This document shows, in pieces, positions 2,057-13,808 of a stretch of 13,967 nt of DNA (within the stretch, counting starts at the first letter, position 1; each line of letters opens with the position of its first letter). The notes under the pieces are model-generated. The model searched no databases and was not told where the DNA came from. It saw nothing but the letters and a program-made list of their open reading frames with translations. The position numbers were made by a program, and so were the translations under genes. Source of the stretch: Promethearchaeota archaeon (GTDB taxonomy: Archaea; Asgardarchaeota; Lokiarchaeia; Sigyniarchaeales; SOKP01); contig SHMW01000097.1 of NCBI GenBank assembly GCA_008080735.1, positions 1 through 13,967 on the forward strand, read 5' to 3'.

Positions 2057-2084
2057 TGACAATGTATTTTTTATAAAATTGTCA
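2057..2084 (+). promoter_or_regulatory. TATA box (TTTATAAA, 2070-2077) flanked by the inverted repeat TGACAAT-N14-ATTGTCA; candidate promoter/operator of the signalling cluster
   Basis: Perfect 7-bp arms at 2057-2063 and 2078-2084. The TATA box ends 27 nt before ATG 2105, which fits a short-leader or leaderless archaeal transcript. Confidence 0.45.
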
Positions 2085-2104
2085 ATAAAAAATTGAAATT
2101 TATA

Positions 2105-2791
2105 ATGAAGAATATGGAAAACCAAGTCAGTAAGACTGGGGAATATGAAATTAATTCTGAGAAAAATGAATTATCAGTATATCTAGAAAAATTTCCCTTT
2201 ATCACCATAATAGGAAAGTATGATCATATTTTAGGTCCAAGCTGTTTATATACACCTGTAGAATATGAGGATGAAGATTTCATCAAAAATTTGCTTCGAG
2301 ATGCTCTTAATACTAAAAATAAATTTGTAATTTTAAATCACGATAAATTTTATTCTCAGACATGTAAAGTAAGAATTAAAGATGAAGATGCACGAGGGAG
2401 AAATCAACTATATGCAATAATATTGCTTAGACATATTGAAAAGCCTTTGATACCTACGGTCCATTTTAAGAAGATAGAAATGCTTTTTCGTAAAGTAGGG
2501 GAAGAGGAGATTTTAAAAAATAATATAACTGTTTTTGAGGAATTTGCCCAACAGATCAGAGAGACCTATTTTAATAAGGATGAATTACTTCCCTTGGAAT
2601 CGTGCAATCTTAAAGTAAGAAGTGGAGTGAATACCATACAAGGTTTTTGTGAATTAATATTGGAAGAGAAAACCAAGAAGAAAAAGTTATCGGATGAGAT
2701 GATTGTAGACTATATCAATTTGATGCTTGATTCTTGTGATGAGATTATTAAAGCTTTGGAGGAAAATCTTCAAGGTTCTTTTCATGGATAA
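2105..2791 (+). CDS. Folliculin/SMCR8/C9orf72-like longin (uDENN) domain protein fused to a degenerate, His-less HisKA (DHp) domain
   Basis: N-terminal IIGKYDHILGP matches the longin beta1-beta2 'F/Y-D-x-x-x-G-P' hairpin, and VRIKDEDARGRNQLYAIILL matches the FLCN/SMCR8 'D-x-x-A-R-G' loop. C-terminal LESCNLKVRSGVNTIQGFCELILEE aligns with LASMSHELRTPLNAIVGFTDLILEE of the kinase ending at 11371. The ORF track starts at TTG 2093; ATG 2105 (or 2114) is more likely. Confidence 0.7.
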   Translation: MKNMENQVSKTGEYEINSEKNELSVYLEKFPFITIIGKYDHILGPSCLYTPVEYEDEDFIKNLLRDALNTKNKFVILNHDKFYSQTCKVRIKDEDARGRNQLYAIILLRHIEKPLIPTVHFKKIEMLFRKVGEEEILKNNITVFEEFAQQIRETYFNKDELLPLESCNLKVRSGVNTIQGFCELILEEKTKKKKLSDEMIVDYINLMLDSCDEIIKALEENLQGSFHG

Positions 2792-2818
2792 ATAAGAAAA
2801 GGAAATAATAAGTTTATA

Positions 2819-3700
2819 ATGGATAAAGACAAAAAGATTATTATTTGCGGTCCTCCTAACAGTGGAAAAACCACGATAGTAAACGTATTTTTTAAAAAGG
2901 CAAATCCGCTAAAACTTTTAAAGAATTCTCTTGAGCCAACAAGAGGGATCAATTCTGAGCAATTTTCACTATTCGAGTCTAATTTAGGTATATTTGATTT
3001 GGCTGGACAAGAGAATAAAGATTGGTTTACAAAGGATAAGGATATATTTGAGTACAGTGATATTATATTGTGCGTATTTGATATTAATAATTCCTTGAAA
3101 TCGATCGTCTCTTTTCTTATAAAAATCTTAAGAATTAAGCAGGACACTCATACGCTTTCAGAATGTAAAATCATCACCTTTCTTCATAAGGTCGATCTTG
3201 CTAATCGATCCTATATTTCCCAAAAACATAGAGCAGTTTCAAAATTTTTTGAGAGTCGTTATCCGCATATAGAATTGGATTTTTATTTAACATCTATTAC
3301 CAGACAATACTTTTATAATACATTTAATATTATTTTAGAAATTTTGAATCTACTCTTTCAAAAGGACCTTATTCCAATTAGTCAGAGACAATTCGAATTT
3401 TTAAAAACGGAACTCTACCTTATTTTAAAAATCGATTCAAGTGTAAAATATTCCATAGAAACACTTTCAGAGAAGATTAGATTAAATAAAAACCTATTAA
3501 ACACACATTTAAAGAGATTGGAAAAATTGGGGTTCCTTACATTTCTTAATAATAGAGATGTTGTTTGTTTTACAGAGAGGTGCGGGTTTTTTAAACAAGG
3601 TTTCTTGAAAGAGGTACATAAGATTGAAGAAATAAGTAGAAATAAGGAAACTAAATTGTTTTATACGTTGGGAGAATTGAATAACATTCCAATTGATTAA
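2819..3700 (+). CDS. Rag/Gtr-Arf-like small GTPase with C-terminal winged helix-turn-helix domain
   Basis: G1 GPPNSGKT, G2 EPTRG, G3 DLAGQ, G4 HKVD and G5 LTSI are present (HKxD and TSI are Rag-like). Residues ~195-258, ELYLILKI..YSIETLSEKIRLNKNLLNTHLKRLEKLGFL..VVCFTER, follow a MarR/ArsR-like wHTH pattern. Confidence 0.85.
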   Translation: MDKDKKIIICGPPNSGKTTIVNVFFKKANPLKLLKNSLEPTRGINSEQFSLFESNLGIFDLAGQENKDWFTKDKDIFEYSDIILCVFDINNSLKSIVSFLIKILRIKQDTHTLSECKIITFLHKVDLANRSYISQKHRAVSKFFESRYPHIELDFYLTSITRQYFYNTFNIILEILNLLFQKDLIPISQRQFEFLKTELYLILKIDSSVKYSIETLSEKIRLNKNLLNTHLKRLEKLGFLTFLNNRDVVCFTERCGFFKQGFLKEVHKIEEISRNKETKLFYTLGELNNIPID

Positions 3701-3728
3701 TTATAATAGAGATTGATTGGTGATTGGT

Positions 3729-5753
3729 TTGGAACACAAAGAACAAGACACAAAAAAAAGCAAAAGTCTAAGCAACTGTAATATAGCTCAGAATGAGAAA
3801 TCATCCAAAAAAAAAGGATATAATGCGCAGCTCGAAGCCTTAAATATTCAATATCATCAATTGGTAGCCAATATACCCGGTGCAGTTTTTCAGTTTGGTT
3901 TAGCGGATAAAAATGAAATTTCCATTCAATATATAAGTGAAGGGATCTACGAATTAACTGGACTAACGAGGGATGAATTTGAAGGATCAATTTCACAATT
4001 AATAGATATCATCTATCAGAAAGATTTAAATTCATTTAGAAAATCCCTTGAACATTCTATAGAGAATTCTGAACCTTGGAACATGGAATTCAGAATTATT
4101 ACTAAAAATACCGGAGAAATCAAATGGTTAGACGGTAGGTCAACTTTAAAATTGATAGATGGACGAAGTTACATGTGGTATGGAGTTTTGTTAGATATAA
4201 CTGAGAAGAAGAGTGCGCAAATTAGATTAAAGAAGATAAACGAAAAACTTGAGCAGAAAGTAAAAGAAAGAACACATCATCTCAAGGAACGGGTTAAAGA
4301 AATTAGGTGTCTCTATGATATTTCTAAAATCGTTGAAAATGCAAAATTTAGCTTAGAAGAGACGTTCAAGAGAATTGTTCAGAGGATACCTAAATCAATG
4401 CAATATTCCGATATTAGTTGTTCAAGAATCAAATATAATCAAACAGATTTTTTATCACATAATTTTAAAAATTCTGACTGGAAGATCTCAGTTCCCATTC
4501 AAAATAAAGCAAATATAGGGGAAATCGAAATCTTTTATACAGAGAAGAGACCTCAAGAATCATTTGGTCCGTTTTTAGAGGATGAATTGAAATTATTAGA
4601 GGCCATAAAAGAGATAATAGAGAGATACTTAGAACGAGAAGAGACTAAAAAAGAGCTTTTAAGAAAAAATCATGCAATAAATTCCTCAAAAAGCGCTATC
4701 ACAATCTTGAATATGAAAGGAACAGTTGAATATGTTAATCCAGCATTCTTAAAGATGTGGGGATATGAAGATAAAAAAAGTGTTCTCGCCAGATCTGCGC
4801 TGGAATTTTGGGCAGAGGAAAAAAAGGCTCAAATGATGATCACAAAGATTTTTAGTGAAGGAAAGGCGTCTGGACAGATGGAAGCAAAAAGAAAGGATGG
4901 GTCAAATTTTATTGCAAATGTACAAGGTAAGATAATTCTTAATGAAAAAAATGAGAAAACAGGTATAACTGCTTCTTTTATCGATGTCACGGATACAGTT
5001 AATGCGAAACAAAAATTAGAAAAAAGTATGGAAGAACTCAAAAGGTCTAATCAGGAATTAGAACAGTTCGCATATGTGGCTTCACATGATCTACAAGAAC
5101 CATTAAGAATGGTTTCCAGTTTTACACAATTACTTCAAAAGCGTTATTATGATAAATTAGATGAAGATGCAAATGAATTTATTGAATATGCAGTAGATGG
5201 AGCGAAACGAATGCAGAATCTTATAAATGATCTACTCACTTTTTCAAGAGTGGGGATGAGAGGTACTCCATTCGAACCTATAGATATGAACAAAGTCCTT
5301 TCAAATACCCTTCAAAATCTCAAATTTGTAATAAAAGAAACTGATACTAACATAATCTATGACGAATTACCCATTATTAACGCAGATCGTTCTCAAATAC
5401 AGCAAGTTCTCCAAAATCTTATTTCAAATGCAATAAAATTCCATGGAAAAGAAGCACCAAAAATCCGAATATCCTCCACAGAGGAAGAGTCTAAATGGAT
5501 ATTTTCTGTGAAAGACAATGGTATCGGCATTGATCCCCAATTTTTTAATAAAATATTTGTTATTTTTCAGAGGTTACATAAAAGAGGGGAATATGAAGGG
5601 ACTGGCATTGGACTAGCTCTTTGTAAAAAGATTATTAATAGACATGGGGGGGAGATTTGGGTTGATTCTGAAAGTGGAGAAGGCTCAACCTTTCACTTTT
5701 TTATTCCTAAAAGTAAAATTAAGAAAAATATAAAAATGAGTGATAAAATATGA
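3729..5753 (+). CDS. Cytoplasmic sensor histidine kinase: PAS - GAF-like - PAS - HisKA - HATPase_c (Cph1-like kinase core)
   Basis: H-box FAYVASHDLQEPLR, N-box QNLISNAIKF, G1 DNGIG and G2 GTGIGL are present; the PAS domains end in DITEKK and DVTD. No transmembrane segment is visible. There is no ATG before the first PAS. TTG 3729 follows GGTGAT (3719-3724), so it is preferred over TTG 3717 of the ORF track. Confidence 0.93.
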   Translation: MEHKEQDTKKSKSLSNCNIAQNEKSSKKKGYNAQLEALNIQYHQLVANIPGAVFQFGLADKNEISIQYISEGIYELTGLTRDEFEGSISQLIDIIYQKDLNSFRKSLEHSIENSEPWNMEFRIITKNTGEIKWLDGRSTLKLIDGRSYMWYGVLLDITEKKSAQIRLKKINEKLEQKVKERTHHLKERVKEIRCLYDISKIVENAKFSLEETFKRIVQRIPKSMQYSDISCSRIKYNQTDFLSHNFKNSDWKISVPIQNKANIGEIEIFYTEKRPQESFGPFLEDELKLLEAIKEIIERYLEREETKKELLRKNHAINSSKSAITILNMKGTVEYVNPAFLKMWGYEDKKSVLARSALEFWAEEKKAQMMITKIFSEGKASGQMEAKRKDGSNFIANVQGKIILNEKNEKTGITASFIDVTDTVNAKQKLEKSMEELKRSNQELEQFAYVASHDLQEPLRMVSSFTQLLQKRYYDKLDEDANEFIEYAVDGAKRMQNLINDLLTFSRVGMRGTPFEPIDMNKVLSNTLQNLKFVIKETDTNIIYDELPIINADRSQIQQVLQNLISNAIKFHGKEAPKIRISSTEEESKWIFSVKDNGIGIDPQFFNKIFVIFQRLHKRGEYEGTGIGLALCKKIINRHGGEIWVDSESGEGSTFHFFIPKSKIKKNIKMSDKI

Positions 5754-6200
5754 AAAAGAAAGATAATTGGCAAACCAATAGAGATTCTTCTTGTAGAAGA
5801 TAATCCTGGAGATATAAGATTAACCAAGGAAGCATTGAAGGAGAGTAAAATTTTAAATAATCTCAATATAGTGATGGATGGAGAAGAGGCTATGAAATAT
5901 TTGCTTAATGAAGGTGAGTACGGTGAAAAACCAAAACCAGATATCATACTTCTGGACCTTAATTTACCAAAAAAAGATGGTCGTGAAGTTCTTGCAGACA
6001 TCAAACAAATAAAAGATTTAAGACATATCCCGGTGGTTATTTTAACAAGTTCAGAAGCAGATGAAGATATTATTAAAACCTATGAATTGCATGCTAATTG
6101 TTATGTAACCAAACCAGTTGATCTTGATCAGTTCAGTAAGGTCGTAAAAGCGATTGGAGATTTTTGGTTCAGCATTGTTAAATTACCAAATGAAGATTAA
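5754..6200 (+). CDS. Stand-alone receiver-domain response regulator (Rcp1-like); start codon anomalous
   Basis: The open frame from 5754 reads [20 protein letters not shown]...[12 protein letters not shown]...VILTSS...YVTKPV...FWFSIVKLP, with all receiver residues intact. The ORF-track start TTG 5835 cuts off the acidic pocket. The obvious ATG (5750) is out of frame by one base. Confidence 0.88.
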
Positions 6201-6234
6201 ACAAGCTTATTCAACCAAGCTAGGTGAGTTAGAG

Positions 6235-8505
6235 ATGAAAGATAAAGTAAGAGACATAATAGACATCTTATTAATTGAAGATAATATAGCAGATGTCAAA
6301 TTGCTGGAGGTTTTATTATCAGAAAATATAAATGTAGATTTTCAATATAAATTACACATAGCAAATACTCTAAAAGAAGGATTTAAATTATTGGAACAGA
6401 ACTCATTTGATGTTATTCTTTTAGATTTATCACTGCCAGATAGTAATGGTTTTAAAACTATTTCAACAGTTTATGAAGAGATAACCGAGATTCCTATCAT
6501 TGTCTTAACGGGTTTGGATGATATAAAGGGAGGGAGAAAAGCAGTCAAGCTGGGGGCTCAAGATTTTTTAATAAAAGGTAAAGTTGATGGAAATCATTTA
6601 GTACAGTCAATCTATCATTCTATCGAACGACATAAGATGATAAAAACTATTGAGGACCTTGCAAATGATTTGCAAAAAGAAGAACATAAACTGAGAAAAA
6701 TTATCAATGCTAATGCTGATGCGATAATAATTACATCAAAGAATGGAAAAGTTCAATTTATTAACCCTGCTGCTGAAGAATTATTTGAATGTAAAAGCAC
6801 TTCATTTAAAGGGGAAGAATTTGGATATGACATTAGCGAGAATGGAGGAAAAGAGATTTGTATCCAAAATTCCACTACGAAATATGCTGAAGTGAAACAA
6901 GTGGATATAGAGTGGGAAGGAAAGCACGCGAAACTCCTCACTCTCAGAGATATTACTAAAAATAAGCAATATGAGAAACTATTAAAAAAATCTGAAAGGA
7001 AATATCGTAATTTATTTGAAAATTCGCCATATCCTATTTTAATAATGGATTCTAGCGGAAAAATCGTAGATTGCAATTCTAATGTGTTAGAATTATTCGA
7101 AATTAATAAAGAAGAATTTATATCGGGAAATTATAAGGATGAGTTTCTTAAACCACTTAATGAGAGTAATCTTTTCTCTGAGAATTTAGAAGAATTAGAT
7201 CAGAATAACCTTCCCGATTCCTATGAGATGGAAATTAGAGTTTCTGAAAATAAAAAGTTATGGTTGGATCTCAATTTCTCATTCATATACTTAAATAATA
7301 CCCCATTAATTCATCTCTTAATCCGGAATATTACGCCGATTAAGCAATCTGAGAGAGAAATGCGAAAGTTAGAAAACACTCTCCACGAGATGAATTTGCT
7401 TATTGAACATGCTCCTATGGCCATTTTTTTAATATATAAGAATGGAAAGATTTTAAGAGCTAATAAGGCAGCGTTAGATTTATTTCAATACAGAGAAGAA
7501 AGTTTGTTAAATTCTAGGGTATATGACCTATTTGATTCGAAATATCAAAAGCTAATAAAAAGTCATTATCGGAAAGATGTATTCCATTCCGATTTGGAAA
7601 ATCAAATTGAAGCCCGAATAATAAGGAAGGACGGAAGGGTCAAGGATGTTGAAATTACATCAACTACCTTAAAGATTGCTGGTAATGTGATAATCCAATC
7701 TTTTATTTCAGATATAAGCTCTCGTAAAAATTATGAGAAAAATAGAGAATTACTGTTAGATCAACTAATCCAATCCTTAGAGTTTAAATCTAAATTTTTA
7801 GCGGCAATGTCCCATGATCTAAGAACCCCTCTCAATGCGATTATAGGGTTTTCGGGCTTATTATTAGATGAGTCCTATGGTAAGTTAAATGAAAGTCAAG
7901 AGGATTACTTAAATGATATTTACAGTGCTGCTGACCAATTAAGTGATTTGATAAATGCAATGCTCGACATTTCAAAAATTGAAATTGGAGGATTTGATTT
8001 AAAAAAGAAGGAATTCGATTTATATCCATTAGTAAAACAAATCCATTCGTTGTTTAAACCCCTCTATAAAAAAAAGGAGTTATCATTTCAAATTAAAAAT
8101 CTAAATAAAGCCAAATACATCTATGCAGATCCTGTAAGATTTAAGCAAATATTATATAATCTTATAGACAATGCTATAAAATATACAGAAGAAGGGGGAA
8201 TCATTTTAAGAATATTCGAACATCTTGAACACTGGGAGTTCCAAATAGAAGATACGGGGATTGGAATTGAAGAAAAGGATTATGAAGTTGTATTTAGAGA
8301 ATTTGGTAGAATAAAAAATGATGTGAAAAAGGAAGTCTCAGGTTCGGGAATAGGTCTATCCTTAACAAAACGTCTTGTCAAACTACATGGAGGGGAAATA
8401 TGGTTTGAAAGCGAGAAAGATAAAGGAACTACATTTTTCTTCACATTACCAAAAAGTAAGGAGGTTAGAAATAATGCAAATATCAAAACAAAATCAGAAA
8501 TTTAA
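6235..8505 (+). CDS. Hybrid kinase: REC - PAS - PAS - PAS - HisKA - HATPase_c
   Basis: The receiver is intact (LLIEDN, LLDLSLPD, VLTG, FLIK). Three PAS repeats end in DITK, NITP and DISS. The kinase core has H-box MSHDLRTPLN, NLIDNAIKY, DTGIG and GSGIGL. ATG 6235 is preceded by AGGTGA (6222-6227) and is preferred over the overlapping 6154 start. Confidence 0.93.
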   Translation: MKDKVRDIIDILLIEDNIADVKLLEVLLSENINVDFQYKLHIANTLKEGFKLLEQNSFDVILLDLSLPDSNGFKTISTVYEEITEIPIIVLTGLDDIKGGRKAVKLGAQDFLIKGKVDGNHLVQSIYHSIERHKMIKTIEDLANDLQKEEHKLRKIINANADAIIITSKNGKVQFINPAAEELFECKSTSFKGEEFGYDISENGGKEICIQNSTTKYAEVKQVDIEWEGKHAKLLTLRDITKNKQYEKLLKKSERKYRNLFENSPYPILIMDSSGKIVDCNSNVLELFEINKEEFISGNYKDEFLKPLNESNLFSENLEELDQNNLPDSYEMEIRVSENKKLWLDLNFSFIYLNNTPLIHLLIRNITPIKQSEREMRKLENTLHEMNLLIEHAPMAIFLIYKNGKILRANKAALDLFQYREESLLNSRVYDLFDSKYQKLIKSHYRKDVFHSDLENQIEARIIRKDGRVKDVEITSTTLKIAGNVIIQSFISDISSRKNYEKNRELLLDQLIQSLEFKSKFLAAMSHDLRTPLNAIIGFSGLLLDESYGKLNESQEDYLNDIYSAADQLSDLINAMLDISKIEIGGFDLKKKEFDLYPLVKQIHSLFKPLYKKKELSFQIKNLNKAKYIYADPVRFKQILYNLIDNAIKYTEEGGIILRIFEHLEHWEFQIEDTGIGIEEKDYEVVFREFGRIKNDVKKEVSGSGIGLSLTKRLVKLHGGEIWFESEKDKGTTFFFTLPKSKEVRNNANIKTKSEI

Positions 8506-11371
8506 TCTTTTATTTATATATAGCAAATATGAGAATTTAGAAATCTTAGCAAAAAGTTTGAAAGAGTTAGAAGCTTTTAACTATAATTTCATCTTAAATA
8601 AAAGAAAAATAGACTCAGTGAAAGGAATTAATCTCGCTAATTTTGATATCTGTATCTATAGCGACTTTCAGCTTGAATTATCTCAACTTCACAAATATTT
8701 TGAAAATATTAGGAACTTAAAGCAGAAATCTGTTATCTTTATAGGGAAACCCCAAGCCATTGAGAATTTAAACAAGATTTTTAGATTAGGGGTCAATTAT
8801 TATTTGGAACAAGATATATCAATTAATAGTCTATGTAAAGCAATTCTAAATTGCATACAATCTCCTAATCTAAAAAAAAGGACTAAAAAATTGGAGTTCT
8901 CTCAAGAAAAATTTAGAAGTCTTTTCGATAATTTAAACGATTCGGTAATTTTCCACGATCTAAAAGGAGATATAATCGAAGTTAATGATACGGCATGTAA
9001 AAGATTAAACTATACGCACGAGGATTTAAAAACAAAGAACCTTGTTTCAATAGATAGTCCCAAATTTAGAAAGTTTATTAAAGATCGAATTGAAGAATTG
9101 AAAAAGAAAGGAAATATCATATTTGAGTCAGAACATTTAACTAAAGGAGGAAAAGTTATCCCAGTAGAAATTAGTACCACTTTAGTTTCTTACGAGGGAA
9201 AAGAGGCTATACTTAGTATCGCTAGAGATATTTCCTTGAGGAAGAAGAAGAAGAAAAAGTACCAAAGAACCTTACAAAAATATAAACAACTTCATAAAGA
9301 GATGGAATTAATCCTTGATCACATCCCAGGTCTTGTTTACCATAAAGATACAGAAAACAACTTTTTAAGAGTTAATAAAAATTTAGCAGAAGTACATGGG
9401 ATGAGCAAGGAAGAAATGTCCGGAAAAAGTTGTTTTGAGATATTTCCAGAAGAACAAGCTCAAGCATATTGGGAAGACGATCTAGATGTTATTAAATCCG
9501 GAAAGCCCAAACTTTTTATTGAAGAAAAATGGCAAACTCCAGAGGGTTTACGCTGGACAAGCACTAGTAAAGTCCCGCTCAGAGATGAGGAGGGAACGAT
9601 TAAAGGAATTATAGGGTTTTCTATTGATTTAACAGAGAAGAAATTAATCGAAAAAGAACTTATTAAGTCTCAGAGAGAACTCAAAGTACGGAATAAAATA
9701 TCAAATCTTTTTCTAAGATATCAAGATGAAAAACTATACAATAAAATCTTAGATTACTTGCTTGAGATGTTTGAATCAAAGATTGGATATTTCAGTTATA
9801 TTAATAGTAAAGGAGATTTAGTATGTCCCACCATGAAAGGAGGTATATGGGAAAGATGTAGTGTAGTGGATAAAGATTTTATTTTCCCTAAGGATTCCTG
9901 GGCTGGATTATGGGGTCGATCATTAGAAGAGAGTAAAATTTTAACCTCTGAGGGCCCTTTTAATTTACCTCAAGGACATATCAAATTAAAAAATGTAGTC
10001 TGTATTCCCATTATATTCCAAAACGAAATTATTGGTCAAATTACTTTAGGAAATAAAAATAGCGGCTATGATAAAAAAAATATCAACTTGTTAAAAACCA
10101 TCTCAAACAAAATTGCCCCGATCTTGGATTTACGATTAAAAAGAAAACAGCAAGAAAGGAAAAAACAAAAAATTCAAGAAAAATTAAGAGAATCAGAAAA
10201 AAAATATCGTAGTGTCTTGGAGAATATAAAGGAGGGCTATTTTGAAATAGATTTAGATGGTAATTTCACTTTTTTTAACAATGCATTAACCAAAATTCTT
10301 GGATTGCAGGATAAGGAAATAAGAGGTAATAATTTAACTGATTATATAGATCAAAAGACAGAAATGCGCTTATCAAAAGAGTTTAAGAAGATCTTAAATA
10401 CAAAAAAAGGAAAAAAAAATATTCAGTTTAAACTAAAAAAAAACAATGAGGAGGAAATGTATCTTGAGACATCTGCTTATCCCCTATATAATTCCGATGA
10501 TAAAATGATTGGATTTTTTGGTTTATCTCGTGATATTACGGAGCGCAAGAGGGCGGAGCTAATCCAGAAAGAATTTCAAAATGAATTAGAACGGAAAGTG
10601 GATGAACGCACGAAAAAATTGAATCAAGCACTTCAAAAACAAAAACATTATTTAGACCATATTCTTAAAGCTTCACAATTTAAATCAGAATTTCTAGCGT
10701 CTATGTCTCATGAATTAAGAACCCCTCTGAATGCAATTGTTGGATTCACCGATTTAATATTAGAAGAATCTTTTGGAAAGCTTAATGAAAAGCAAAAAGA
10801 CTTTCTAAGCGATGTGAAGAGTTCTTCGCAGGATTTGCTTAATATGATTAATCAAGTATTAGATATATCAAAAATCGAAGCGGGTCAGCTCAACTTAGAC
10901 ATAAAAAGCTTTTCTCTTACTAACATGGTCAACCAAATTGATTCTACATTACGAGCATCTCTTAATGAAAAAAAACTTCAATTTATCACGAAAGGGTTAG
11001 ATAATATAAGCGATTTTAAAGCCGATCCGATTAAGTTTAAAGAAATTCTTACCAATTTACTAACTAATGCAATAAAATATACATTAAAAGGGAAAATTGA
11101 GTTAATTGCTGAAGATTCTGGAAAGAATTGGCTGTTTAAAATCTCTGATACAGGTATAGGTATAGAAAAGGAAGATTACAATATCATATTTAAAGAATTC
11201 AAAAGAGGGAACTCTCCTCTTATCAATTCAAAGAGAGGTACAGGACTCGGTTTACCTTTAACAAAAAGATTGGTAAATTTACATGGAGGAGAGATTTGGT
11301 TTAGAAGTAAAAAAGGAGAAGGAACAATTTTTTTCTTTACAATACCTAAAATGAAGATTAAACGTAATTAA
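8474..11371 (+). CDS. Histidine kinase: pseudo-receiver - PAS - PAS - GAF - PAS - HisKA - HATPase_c
   Basis: The kinase core has H-box MSHELRTPLN, NLLTNAIKY, DTGIG and GTGLGL. PAS domains end in DISLRK, DLTEKK and DITERK. A GAF region ends in VCIPIIFQNEIIGQITLGNK. ATG 8474 is preceded by GGAGGT (8460-8465) and is preferred over 8375. Confidence 0.92.
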   Translation: MQISKQNQKFNLLFIYSKYENLEILAKSLKELEAFNYNFILNKRKIDSVKGINLANFDICIYSDFQLELSQLHKYFENIRNLKQKSVIFIGKPQAIENLNKIFRLGVNYYLEQDISINSLCKAILNCIQSPNLKKRTKKLEFSQEKFRSLFDNLNDSVIFHDLKGDIIEVNDTACKRLNYTHEDLKTKNLVSIDSPKFRKFIKDRIEELKKKGNIIFESEHLTKGGKVIPVEISTTLVSYEGKEAILSIARDISLRKKKKKKYQRTLQKYKQLHKEMELILDHIPGLVYHKDTENNFLRVNKNLAEVHGMSKEEMSGKSCFEIFPEEQAQAYWEDDLDVIKSGKPKLFIEEKWQTPEGLRWTSTSKVPLRDEEGTIKGIIGFSIDLTEKKLIEKELIKSQRELKVRNKISNLFLRYQDEKLYNKILDYLLEMFESKIGYFSYINSKGDLVCPTMKGGIWERCSVVDKDFIFPKDSWAGLWGRSLEESKILTSEGPFNLPQGHIKLKNVVCIPIIFQNEIIGQITLGNKNSGYDKKNINLLKTISNKIAPILDLRLKRKQQERKKQKIQEKLRESEKKYRSVLENIKEGYFEIDLDGNFTFFNNALTKILGLQDKEIRGNNLTDYIDQKTEMRLSKEFKKILNTKKGKKNIQFKLKKNNEEEMYLETSAYPLYNSDDKMIGFFGLSRDITERKRAELIQKEFQNELERKVDERTKKLNQALQKQKHYLDHILKASQFKSEFLASMSHELRTPLNAIVGFTDLILEESFGKLNEKQKDFLSDVKSSSQDLLNMINQVLDISKIEAGQLNLDIKSFSLTNMVNQIDSTLRASLNEKKLQFITKGLDNISDFKADPIKFKEILTNLLTNAIKYTLKGKIELIAEDSGKNWLFKISDTGIGIEKEDYNIIFKEFKRGNSPLINSKRGTGLGLPLTKRLVNLHGGEIWFRSKKGEGTIFFFTIPKMKIKRN

Positions 11372-11374
11372 TAT

Positions 11375-12181
11375 TTAATCTTGATCTTCTTCTACTATAA
11401 CATCATTTAAGTTTTTTATAGTTTTTTCTTTTAATTTTTCCAAGTTCCCTGGCGTCCCAGTAGGTATTTTCTCTAATTTCTTAACAGAAGGTTTACTAGT
11501 TTTTTCTTTTATTTTCTTTTCTAAATTGATGATTCTGGAACTAAGCTGGATGACTGCATTTATAGTACTTTCTAATATTTGAGCCATTCTTTCTATTTTA
11601 ATCTCTATAGGTCCCTTTTTAAAAGTCTTGCCGTTAATGATTTCTCTAACCAGATTAACAAATTTTGGTTGGTTTGGAAAGCTTGAATAAATAGATGTTA
11701 AATAGATTTCATAATTATACTTTCTCTCATTTAGTTCTGGTTCAATTTGATCTTTTATATTTTTTATATTTGATTTTATAGATTTATTATCCTGAATCTC
11801 AGGGTCATATTTATGTAGAAAAATTAGGAAATAAGGATTTTCCTCCAATTTAATAACAAGTTCTAAGATCTTGTTGAAATAGTTCAAACTCTCTTCTATA
11901 CGGTCAATATCTTGTATATCAAAAACATAAATTATTAAATCTATATCTTGAAAATAGCGCTCTGGTTCTTCGAGATATTGATCTCGATGATCTTTTTGCC
12001 CTCCGAAGTCCCATATAAGGAAATTCATATCCTTTGTGTCAATTTCTCGTCGATCAACACCTCTTGTTGGTTCTAAAGAAGCTAAATCATCGATTCCTAA
12101 CTTTCCTCCGAATCGGGATAATAGTGATGTCTTCCCCGCGTTATCTAATCCTAGTACTATAATCTTTTGTTCTTCAATCAT
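11375..12181 (-). CDS. Arf/Rag-like small GTPase with C-terminal coiled coil
   Basis: G1 GLDNAGKT, G2 EPTRG, G3 WDFGGQ, G4 HKYD and G5 LTSI are present, followed by the heptad segment IERMAQILESTINAVIQLSSRIINLEKKI. Confidence 0.9.
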   Translation of the reverse strand: MIEEQKIIVLGLDNAGKTSLLSRFGGKLGIDDLASLEPTRGVDRREIDTKDMNFLIWDFGGQKDHRDQYLEEPERYFQDIDLIIYVFDIQDIDRIEESLNYFNKILELVIKLEENPYFLIFLHKYDPEIQDNKSIKSNIKNIKDQIEPELNERKYNYEIYLTSIYSSFPNQPKFVNLVREIINGKTFKKGPIEIKIERMAQILESTINAVIQLSSRIINLEKKIKEKTSKPSVKKLEKIPTGTPGNLEKLKEKTIKNLNDVIVEEDQD

Positions 12182-12218: not shown

Positions 12219-13685
12219 TTATTCTACAATTCCTCTTTTTTTGAATAAATCTTTTAATTCTGATATAATATCCCTTCTCGCATGAGCTCTTCCTCTTGCG
12301 CGTAATTCACTTTTTGATAAAGGTTTTTCTGAAGATTTATCTGAAACAGAATCTATTGCTGGAGGTTCAGGAGGGGGATTAAGATCTTTCGTATTTATGT
12401 TTCTTTTTTCAGCTTGCTGAGTAGGTTTAGGAGATTTTCCAGTTGGTGGTGCTATTGGTGGTGCTGTTGGTGGTGCTGGTGGTGTCATTTCTGGATCATT
12501 TCTTTCCAAAATTTCTTGGTTTATTGTTTTATTGTTATTTTTAGCGACTTGTGAAAAATCTAATGGTTTAGGAGTTCTTTTTGAGTAATATAGTCCTTGA
12601 TTATCTCTTTTATCCTCTTCAGCAACGAAATCCTCTGGAATTTCTCGAAATGGTATATCAAATAAAGAACCTGACACCTTAGCGGGTGAGATTCTAATTA
12701 ATAATCGTTTCATTTCAGATAATTCCGAAGAAATATTATCCATTAATTTAAGGTTAATATCCAGAATTTTTTCTAGTTTAGCATCGATATCTGGTATCTT
12801 TTGTTCTCCTTTCTCATATTGTTTTGAGAAAAAATTCTTAATGCTTTTAGCAATATCAGGTTCATTTGAATAAAAATTATAAATACTCGTTAGAATGATC
12901 TCGAAATTCCACGAGTTTTCTTTTTCTCCAAATAAATTGGAAACTTTATCATTTAGATATTCAATTTTTATCTGAAAATCAGGGTCATTAATGATGTCAG
13001 AATCTGCTTTATTGAGTAAGACCAAAACATAAGGAAACTCATCCATATATCCTAGTATATTCAGTAAATCATTTAAATAATCGACAGCATCGTCGTAACG
13101 AACATCATCTTGTGAATCAATCACAAAAATTAGAACATCAACTTGAACAAAAAACTTCTCAGGATCTTCGAGGTATTCTTCCACATGTCTTTTTTGTCCA
13201 CCTAAATCCCACAATACTAAATTTAATTTATCTGATTGAAATTCTTCAATATTTGCCCCCTTTGTGGGCTCTAAATCCATTAAATCGTGATAATCATAGT
13301 TATGAACCAATCTATTTATTAAACTTGTTTTTCCAGCAAAATCTAAACCTGCAATAACCACTTTCATTTGTGGTTTTTTTAGATATTCCTTTCTCTTATT
13401 CCAAGAATTGGAAATTAAACGTGAAGAAATATATAAATTTCGCAATATGGATTCATCAATAACTTTTTTTTTCAATATCTTTTGATATTGTTTTTGAGTT
13501 AAATCAGACGCATCTCTGATAGTCTTTATATCAGTCTTTTTTAAAGCATCTATCACACCCACATTAACATCCTTGAGTTTATCTAAGTTTAAGTCTAATA
13601 TAGCTTTAATACTTGTGGGATAATAATCTAATTCTAAAAAGCGATCACAAAAATATTTTATAATTGTCTTTGCGGATTCAGACAT
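12219..13685 (-). CDS. Multidomain Arf/Rag-like GTPase: N-terminal HhH-like domain, G domain, coiled coil, proline-rich linker, C-terminal amphipathic basic helix
   Basis: G1 GLDFAGKT, G2 EPTKG, G3 WDLGGQ, G4 NKAD and G5 LTSI are present. The tail contains TPPAPPTAPPIAPPT and PPPEPP and ends RRDIISELKDLFKKRGIVE. ATG 13685 is preferred; the GTG at 13694 looks like part of a GTGA ribosome-binding site. Confidence 0.88.
   Translation of the reverse strand: MSESAKTIIKYFCDRFLELDYYPTSIKAILDLNLDKLKDVNVGVIDALKKTDIKTIRDASDLTQKQYQKILKKKVIDESILRNLYISSRLISNSWNKRKEYLKKPQMKVVIAGLDFAGKTSLINRLVHNYDYHDLMDLEPTKGANIEEFQSDKLNLVLWDLGGQKRHVEEYLEDPEKFFVQVDVLIFVIDSQDDVRYDDAVDYLNDLLNILGYMDEFPYVLVLLNKADSDIINDPDFQIKIEYLNDKVSNLFGEKENSWNFEIILTSIYNFYSNEPDIAKSIKNFFSKQYEKGEQKIPDIDAKLEKILDINLKLMDNISSELSEMKRLLIRISPAKVSGSLFDIPFREIPEDFVAEEDKRDNQGLYYSKRTPKPLDFSQVAKNNNKTINQEILERNDPEMTPPAPPTAPPIAPPTGKSPKPTQQAEKRNINTKDLNPPPEPPAIDSVSDKSSEKPLSKSELRARGRAHARRDIISELKDLFKKRGIVE
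12444..12485. repeat. Short coding tandem repeat (tggtggtgc core, 12/12/9/9-nt units) encoding the APP(T/I) proline-rich repeat
   Basis: The + strand reads tggtggtgctat tggtggtgctgt tggtggtgc tggtggtgt. Confidence 0.8.
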
Positions 13686-13808
13686 AAATATCACATTAAA
13701 ATTCCAATAAAAGTTAAATCCAATTAATTCATCGAGTAGATCCTTTTAAGTTTGTGGAAAAAAAAATCTAGGTTTTTAGTTATATTTTCCTTTTTTTTAT
13801 CATTGAAA

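Follow-up and report, generated by a model that had tools for sequence, protein, structure and literature searches.

Contig SHMW01000097.1 of a Lokiarchaeial metagenome-assembled genome (~4.1 Mb, GC content ~30%) carries a gene cluster in which a longin protein with a kinase-like hairpin is encoded together with Rag-like GTPases and two-component proteins. The analyzed window corresponds to the entire contig, 13,967 bp, where six plus-strand genes, g1 to g6, span positions 2093 to 11371 and two further Rag-like GTPase genes, g7 and g8, are found on the minus strand, convergent on the former. The linkage of longin-DHp, GTPase, and two-component genes is not due to chance, and the protein encoded by g1 is a longin of the folliculin (FLCN)/NPRL2 type. 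For the cluster as a whole, the best explanation would be a conserved cytoplasmic module of one Lokiarchaeia order, composed of a longin GTPase-activating protein (GAP), Rag GTPases, and two-component proteins, a reading whose chances we consider about even.

The linkage was evaluated by inspecting three g1 homologues on long contigs and then annotating 20 further neighborhoods with hidden Markov models from the window's genome, and the counts below refer to 21 distinct loci of other Lokiarchaeial genomes. All three long-contig homologues sit among Gtr1/RagA GTPases, kinases, and receivers. Moreover, a kinase is found at 3 kb or less from the g1 homologue in 21 of 21 loci, the mean numbers within 10 kb being 3.6 for kinases, 2.6 for receivers, and 3.3 for GTPases. 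In 20-kb pieces drawn at random from the genome of the window the means are 0.22 kinases and 0.24 GTPases, both types being present in 2.2% of the pieces and two of each in 0 of 5,000, whereas kinases and GTPases are both present in all 21 related loci; this corresponds to a local enrichment of ~15-fold. The preliminary description of this sequence had named, as the outcome that would count against it, that homologues of the first two genes are never linked to two-component genes, and linkage to kinase and receiver genes is seen in every one of the 21 loci. The own genome encodes a total of 71 small GTPases and 47 kinases, and clustering of the two over the whole genome is weak, with 10 of the 71 GTPases located 5 kb or less from a kinase versus 5.4 ± 2.2 at random. 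Therefore, the mixing is specific to the g1-g8 cluster.

A comparison of the related loci reveals a recurrent gene order. The first part comprises a ribbon-helix-helix (RHH)-DHp-receiver (REC) gene and a gene for a GTPase of ~500 aa, divergent from the longin-DHp gene; the second part comprises the longin-DHp gene, the GTPase-winged helix gene, and two kinase genes, followed by convergent genes for GTPases of ~519 and ~441 aa and a receiver. The linkage persists through inversions and gene reordering across several genera. The g5/g6 kinase family is present in 21 of the 21 loci, the g8 family (~498 aa) adjoins the longin-DHp gene in 15, and the g7 family is found in 6. Also, at 29 of 53 places a g2 orthologue is the next gene downstream of g1, on the same strand and 13 to 116 nt away, and at 5 others it lies 15 kb or less from g1. 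Of 400 genomes of the phylum, 68 contain the g1 family itself, all of them of the same class as the window and all but one of the same order.

In the window, the genes g1 to g6 are separated successively by 27, 16, 0, and 34 nt, and g5 and g6 overlap by 32 nt, so that the layout given in the preliminary description, six co-oriented genes with spacings of about 35 nt or less or overlapping, is borne out by the coordinates. The cluster start that it had given, 2057, corresponds to an ORF of 6 codons, and the gene start lies at 2093 to 2114. No membrane segments are predicted in any protein of the cluster. The contig stretch was found in only two DNA runs, both from one marine-sediment study, and no RNA run was listed for it. 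Upstream of the cluster, at 330-1877 on the plus strand, there is a 515-aa gene with a weak Amidohydro_2 match; in the close relative L029 the same gene likewise stands ahead of the cluster, and L004 has a shorter Amidohydro_2 gene nearby.

The longin domain and hairpin of g1

The gene g1 (2093..2791, plus strand) encodes a FLCN/NPRL2-type longin domain, at approximately residues 35 to 160 of a 232-aa ORF, and a His-less DHp hairpin at residues 165 to 226. The start at 2093 gives 232 aa, and the probable start, ATG 2114, gives 225 aa, which equals the length of the closest homologue. The only Pfam match of g1 is Folliculin, sub-threshold (E 1.8e-3, residues 91-135). In the AlphaFold2 model (mean predicted local distance difference test, pLDDT, 78.8), a longin fold with the order β-β-α-β-β-β-α-α comes first, and two long helices (165-196 and 201-226) come after it. 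A comparison of this longin with known structures by VIA-align gives the highest scores for NPRL2 (Z 12.4, root mean square deviation (rmsd) 2.8 over 129 residues), a Loki longin (Z 12.0), yeast Npr2 (Z 11.7), and FLCN (Z 11.6), the remaining longins, including those of Mon1-Ccz1, TRAPP, and CPLANE, scoring Z 8-10. The Foldseek search agrees with this, the top matches of g1 being GATOR1 and FLCN chains, and the matches over the whole length of g1 are LOV-histidine kinases.

Across 40 homologues with 50 to 93% identity to g1, two segments do not vary, GKYDHxLGP and the loop A100-R101-G102, and the GP motif corresponds to G48-P49, which opens strand 48-53 of the model. The sequence of the loop in g1, KDEDARG, resembles KDSLARG, the FLCN sequence around the catalytic R164; this likeness is a lead and not a test. 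According to a longin survey (PMC12290439), a GP motif opening strand 2 beside a conserved Arg is specific to GAP-type longins and is also present in some Asgard longins. Thus, g1 is a longin of the folliculin/NPRL2 type, having both the fold and the GP motif reported for GAP longins.

A comparison of the g1 profile with the sequences of PDB chains gave no meaningful match, FLCN and NPRL2 being out of reach by sequence. No second longin gene was found in the window by the Pfam scan, and in the AlphaFold2 model of g1 there is no DENN or NPRL2 C-terminal domain, the helical hairpin being the only element that follows the longin. Longer fused forms of g1 were absent at E<=0.001, which is weak evidence. 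The word-indexed search recovered 273 g1 homologues, all of which belong to Loki/Promethearchaeota and lack any Pfam domain, and an exhaustive scan of 1.84 billion proteins yielded only 33 clusters of the family at 50% identity.

With respect to the hairpin, a comparison by hhalign of the g1 tail profile with the profile of 114 Loki kinase DHp domains gives a probability of 92.8% and an E of 3.9e-7. In this alignment, the column of the H-box His corresponds to the near-invariant Leu173 of g1, and the downstream pattern R-x-x-x-N-x-I-x-G-F-x-x-L-I-L-E-E is retained. The H-box-like helix is the most conserved section of the g1 tail among 40 homologues. Moreover, g1 ends 6 residues past the hairpin and lacks HATPase_c by Pfam, and a search with the tail against the own genome gives the DHp of g6 as the best non-self match (E 0.0064), with the DHp of other kinases among the weaker matches. 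By sequence, the g1 tail is a DHp domain that has lost both the phospho-acceptor His and the ATPase domain.

Other proteins combine these domains in different ways. The g1-family variants P0253 (391 aa) and P0256 (388 aa) have an N-terminal PAS domain followed by the longin and the dead DHp, being a sensor domain joined directly to the longin without any kinase. In P0262 (556 aa), HisKA (DHp) stretches occur six times in tandem and Pfam detects no ATPase domain, which is an unusual arrangement of several hairpins. In the own genome, the region C33:7651-9230 (L033:809-2388) encodes a 184-aa Rag-like GTPase and then a 299-aa receiver protein with WDDIVGP in its C-terminal part, which resembles the GP motif of C9orf72; between g1 and this protein the likeness is at motif level only, hhalign giving a probability of 5% and an E of 0.0076 over 28 columns, and a longin in its C-terminal part is putative. 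A second sub-threshold Folliculin match in the own genome (C47:7750-7935, minus strand, E 3.9e-4) is located in a 472-aa frame. This contig has five small-GTPase genes, one of them flagged at approximately the position of the Folliculin match, and the frame may correspond to a GTPase-longin fusion.

Rag-like GTPases and the modeled g1-g2 complex

The gene g2 (2819..3700, plus strand) encodes a Rag-family GTPase (residues 1-185) followed by a MarR/ArsR-like winged helix (approximately 189-251) and extra helices. The best Pfam family is Gtr1_RagA (E 2.3e-15), and the G motifs are intact and conserved: G1 GPPNSGKT, T41, G3 DLAGQ, G4 HKVD, and TSI. Structurally, the G domain matches RagD (Z 21.8, rmsd 1.9, 27% identity), LokiRagO (Z 21.5), and RagC (Z 17.9), the first two being ~4 Z above other small GTPases. 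The identification of the g2 family with LokiRagM (9m28) was considered and rejected, because it aligns over the G domain at only Z 15.0, the g1 longin also matches 9m28, and the architecture is different.

The C-terminal section of the g2 model (pLDDT 89.8, predicted template modeling score 0.87) is an α-β-α-α-β-β unit plus helices packed on the G domain. The roadblock usual at the C terminus of Rag proteins, where it forms the Rag heterodimer, is not present, and full-length overlays on Gtr1/RagA give an rmsd of ~11 Å. A comparison of the C-terminal profile with PDB sequences shows matches with MarR MgrA (6.1e-4) and ArsR HlyU (7e-4), and also with the winged helices of Lrp and TFE; sub-threshold matches with HTH_5, HTH_24, or MarR are observed in some of 40 members of the family. 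A feature search of the g2 C terminus in the protein atlas gave no usable match, and in the structure search of whole g2 the GTPase matches filled the list; the winged-helix call derives from topology and profile. The two-domain architecture is kept over the full length in homologues of 39 to 55% identity. Among members of the family, the net charge of the C-terminal domain varies between -8 and +15, the only conserved basic positions being R233, R254, and K259. By profile and model, the g2 C terminus is a winged helix of the MarR/ArsR type, and DNA binding by it is putative.

The other two GTPases of the cluster are Rag/Arf-like. The gene g7 (11375..12181, minus strand) encodes 268 aa with a coiled-coil tail (Gtr1_RagA E 1.1e-26), and g8 (12219..13694, minus strand) encodes 491 aa (Gtr1_RagA E 3.1e-23), with an N-terminal extension of ~100 aa, a coiled coil past the G domain, a Pro-rich low-complexity stretch, and a basic tail. 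Since the g8 family is the GTPase most often adjoining the longin-DHp gene, g8 is as good a candidate target of g1 as g2.

A complex of g2 with GTP, Mg, and residues 25-232 of g1 was modeled with ESMFold2 along with three controls. The interface score ipSAE was 0.68, 0.68, and 0.73 for g1-g2 versus 0.00 for the best control; in the calibration of this score, the mark was attained by 58 of 80 solved complexes and by 2 of 110 mismatched pairs. The g1-g2 runs share at least 97% of the contacts, with a partner pLDDT of at least 81. On the g1 side, the interface comprises residues 43-49 (GP loop), 69, 72-73, and 101-106 (ARG loop); on the g2 side, residues 13-14 (P-loop), 36-43 (switch I), and 62-68 (switch II, including Gln64). 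In the model, Arg101 of g1 contacts residue 14 of the P-loop and residue 40 of switch I, and the geometry is that of FLCN-RagC and NPRL2-RagA. This agrees with the anticipation in the preliminary description that the longin would meet the neighboring GTPase, as the modeled complex puts the conserved Arg and the GP loop in the nucleotide pocket. The model lends support to a GAP-like engagement of a Rag-like GTPase by g1, without demonstrating it.

Two-component proteins of the cluster

A classical two-component core is present in the cluster, formed by the kinases g3, g5, and g6, the receiver g4 with its acidic pocket, and the receiver of g5. By Pfam, g3 (3717..5753, plus strand) is a soluble PAS-PAS-HisKA-HATPase_c histidine kinase, and g5 (6235..8505, plus strand) is a hybrid kinase with REC, three PAS, HisKA, and HATPase_c, the receiver being located at residues 38-152. 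The gene g4 (5754..6200 as a stop-to-stop frame, plus strand) encodes a stand-alone receiver (Response_reg E 2e-16) with the ED pair (LLVEDN) and the Asp of ILLDLNLP. The protein encoded by g6 (8474..11371, plus strand) has a putative degenerate REC followed by PAS, PAS, GAF, PAS, HisKA, and HATPase_c. Its N terminus aligns collinearly with the REC profile (9.8 bits, E 3.9e-5 for one target), but the acidic pair is missing from it, as is the conserved Lys; its assignment as a pseudo-receiver is reasonable but weakly supported by the sequence.

Then, the domain calls of the preliminary description are all supported, including the pseudo-DHp (E 3.9e-7), the GTPase-winged helix, and, weakly, the pseudo-receiver. 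It had also noted the absence of an output domain in the two-component proteins, and none was found by Pfam in those of the window.

A family of ~288 aa, present in 9 related loci, has an RHH-like N terminus, a DHp domain where the His is kept, and a C-terminal receiver, without an ATPase domain; the ribbon-helix-helix call was made by reading the sequence only. Examples are found at L008:7209-8051 and L013:7213-8091, both on the minus strand, and in the own genome two such genes are arranged in tandem on a separate contig (C1:101003-101842 and C1:102327-103172). To judge from its domains, this RHH-DHp(His)-REC protein may be the DNA-binding member of the system.

Mechanism, alternatives, and known systems

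The sequence features given in the preliminary description are confirmed, and its interpretation finds support in part. Based on these data, the g1 longin would most likely bind the cluster's Rag-like GTPases, in the first place the co-operonic g2, at their switch regions and act as a GAP by means of the invariant Arg101 with the assistance of the GP loop, as the model suggests. The dead DHp would most likely pair two longins into a dimer, providing the paired-longin platform that eukaryotic GAP complexes assemble from two subunits. Also, the hairpin would retain the receiver-docking face of the neighboring kinases, and therefore a receiver phosphorylated by the PAS/GAF kinases could dock on it and alter the GAP activity. 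Direct sensory control of such longins fits the near-invariant H-box-like helix, the PAS-longin-DHp variants, and the REC-fused protein with a WD..GP motif. In its complete form, a phosphorylation-gated Rag GAP, where a receiver on the DHp of a dimeric longin switches the GAP activity toward paralogous GTPases, one of which reads out on DNA through its winged helix, is a tentative proposal that we regard as unlikely to hold in every part.

Several observations weigh against the reading of the cluster as a single longin GAP/Rag-GTPase/two-component module. The compared genomes are kin, and the 21 loci amount to fewer than 21 independent observations. In 15 of 51 genomes with g1, some of them incomplete, no g2 orthologue is detected at E<1e-60; therefore, g2 is not an obligatory partner of g1. 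The structure of the hairpin is not diagnostic, many helical hairpins giving Z ~8, among them the DHp of HK853 (Z 8.0) and that of GacS; since the fold fits any helical hairpin, the DHp assignment derives from sequence alone. Regarding the modeled complex, its high score may reflect likeness to the solved FLCN-RagC and GATOR1-RagA structures, and close paralogues would score as well, so that the model cannot choose among g2, g7, and g8 as the target. Moreover, eukaryotic longin GAPs are longin heterodimers with DENN or other C-terminal domains that are absent in g1. The preliminary description had placed the only DNA-binding-like domain on the GTPase, which holds for the window and not for the system, because related loci carry the RHH-DHp(His)-REC protein.

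Finally, g4 has no in-frame ATG, GTG, or TTG before 5835 in this contig, its frame being the same as that of g3 behind the TGA at 5751-5753, and the ATG at 5750 is one base out of the receiver frame. In the close relative L029 and in one contig of the metagenome run X2, there are two homopolymer differences of 1 nt each, an A being added behind 5731 and another missing at 5753. In this form, the kinase is 4 residues shorter and the receiver begins in frame at ATG 5750, with 149 aa. The g3/g4 junction could reflect variation between strains, an error of the assembly, or, in the present strain, a read-through fusion.

The alternative that best survives is that the dead DHp is a dimerization handle only, the kinases and receivers being co-regulated neighbors that act elsewhere, for example on RHH-DHp-REC. 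DHp domains are established dimerization modules, and the RHH-DHp(His)-REC protein of related loci could be the true two-component output. Also, longin GAPs require a paired longin (PMC12290439). However, the H-box-like helix is near-invariant except for the His, which is beyond the needs of a coiled-coil handle, and the kinases stay within 3 kb in all 21 loci despite the reshuffled gene order. Moreover, the PAS-longin-DHp and REC-longin-like fusions, together with the work of Liu et al. 2020 (bioRxiv 10.1101/2020.10.19.343400), point to direct sensory control. This alternative is then doubtful, while retaining appreciable weight.

A reverse flow of information has also to be considered, where the longin reads the nucleotide state of the GTPases and the His-less DHp then acts against the kinases, by heterodimerizing or as a receiver decoy, in the manner of the pseudokinase DivL or of anti-kinase proteins. 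In g1, the longin takes the position of a PAS sensor before the DHp, in line with the LOV-histidine kinases among the whole-length Foldseek matches, and the hairpin is most similar to the DHp of g6. DivL, a DHp protein with Tyr in place of the phospho-acceptor His that reads DivK~P, is a known precedent, being a DHp that has lost this His and could still engage a receiver, as might be the case for g1. The likeness is partial: DivL keeps the ATPase domain and PAS sensors, whereas g1 is a hairpin joined to a longin only. Heterodimerization between DHp domains is generally selected against. Furthermore, the model sets Arg101 at the P-loop, and an invariant Arg with a GP motif marks catalytic GAP longins and not passive readers (PMC12290439), which makes the reverse flow distinctly improbable.

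With regard to the activity of the longin, g1 could be a guanine nucleotide exchange factor (GEF) or a passive platform similar to TRAPP, Mon1-Ccz1, DENN, or Ragulator, instead of a GAP. Most of the characterized longin regulators are GEFs or scaffolds (PMC10933270), and the longins of Mon1-Ccz1, TRAPP, and CPLANE are among the fold matches of g1, at Z 8-10. Nonetheless, the top fold matches are the GAP subunits NPRL2, Npr2, and FLCN, the GP motif is reported as specific to GAP longins (PMC12290439), and the invariant Arg is placed at the nucleotide pocket in the model; we give this alternative little credence. Linkage by hitch-hiking, without a shared function, would be favored by the abundance of GTPases (71) and kinases (47) in the own genome and by the relatedness of the compared genomes, and it is very unlikely in view of the ~15-fold local enrichment, the presence of both gene types in 21 of 21 loci versus 2.2% of random pieces, and the survival of the linkage through inversions and reordering across several genera.

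Returning to the longin GAP/Rag-GTPase/two-component module, its closest counterparts in eukaryotes are FLCN, acting on RagC/D, NPRL2 of GATOR1, acting on RagA/B, and SMCR8/C9orf72, acting on Arf. With these, g1 shares the longin fold, the GP motif before strand 2, the conserved Arg in the ARG loop, a Rag-family neighbor, and a modeled P-loop/switch interface. Unlike them, g1 comprises only 225 to 232 aa and carries a His-less kinase hairpin in place of a DENN or NPRL2 C-terminal domain, and a separate partner longin is lacking; its genes are located amid two-component genes, and it is known from sequence and models.

Among archaea, many fusions of NPRL2-like longins to two-component domains have been reported, with the same general logic proposed, and Asgard growth regulation would remain centered on two-component systems with eukaryote-like regulators (Liu et al. 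2020). The g1 protein is of the same longin class and phylum as the published Asgard NPRL2/FLCN-like longins and follows the proposed two-component logic (Liu et al. 2020; PMC12290439). In contrast to what their available text describes, the cluster reported here shows a His-less DHp fusion, an operonic Rag-winged helix GTPase, and several GTPases and kinases together. Hence, the proposal in the preliminary description of an undescribed architecture does not extend to the longin/two-component fusions and their logic, already present in Liu et al. 2020, and is kept for the His-less DHp fusion, the Rag-winged helix partner, and the conserved cluster, no description of which was found in the literature, these two sources being covered in part. 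Tran et al. (PMC10933270) described Loki Rag-like GTPases and found that in MK-D1 the GTPase genes generally do not share operons with roadblock or longin genes, and the 2025 longin-GAP survey in Traffic asks which Asgard GTPases partner the GP-motif longins (PMC12290439).

In bacteria, conservons and MglA systems already connect roadblock regulators and small GTPases with kinases or receivers (PMC4316618). Like the g1-g8 cluster, the conservons (CvnA kinase, CvnB roadblock, CvnC, and CvnD GTPase) and MglA/MglB/RomR co-encode a GTPase, a regulator of the roadblock/longin superfamily, and a kinase or receiver, and in both cases the GTPase is the likely output. The differences are that the GTPases of the cluster are Rag-type and not MglA-type, the regulator is a longin with a predicted Arg finger and not MglB, the kinases are soluble PAS/GAF proteins accompanied by receivers, and a winged helix is fused to the GTPase. 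Moreover, no roadblock or DUF742 matches were found in the window by Pfam.

Asgard genomes encode many Rag-, Arf-, and Rab-like GTPases along with longin and roadblock proteins, and the cluster offers a defined regulator-GTPase pairing, composed of a small soluble longin with putative catalytic motifs, a co-operonic Rag-like GTPase, and kinases and receivers that possibly control them, kept across many genomes, closed ones included, such as the 4.3-Mb genome of locus L024. If g1 and g2 are a GAP and its substrate, the FLCN/GATOR-Rag mechanism would predate eukaryotes, and the pair would reveal how this mechanism was wired into prokaryotic phosphorelays. Moreover, if a phosphorylation-gated Rag GAP holds true, the cluster would be the prokaryotic-style equivalent of the GATOR/FLCN-Rag nutrient axis, where two-component kinases stand in for TOR.

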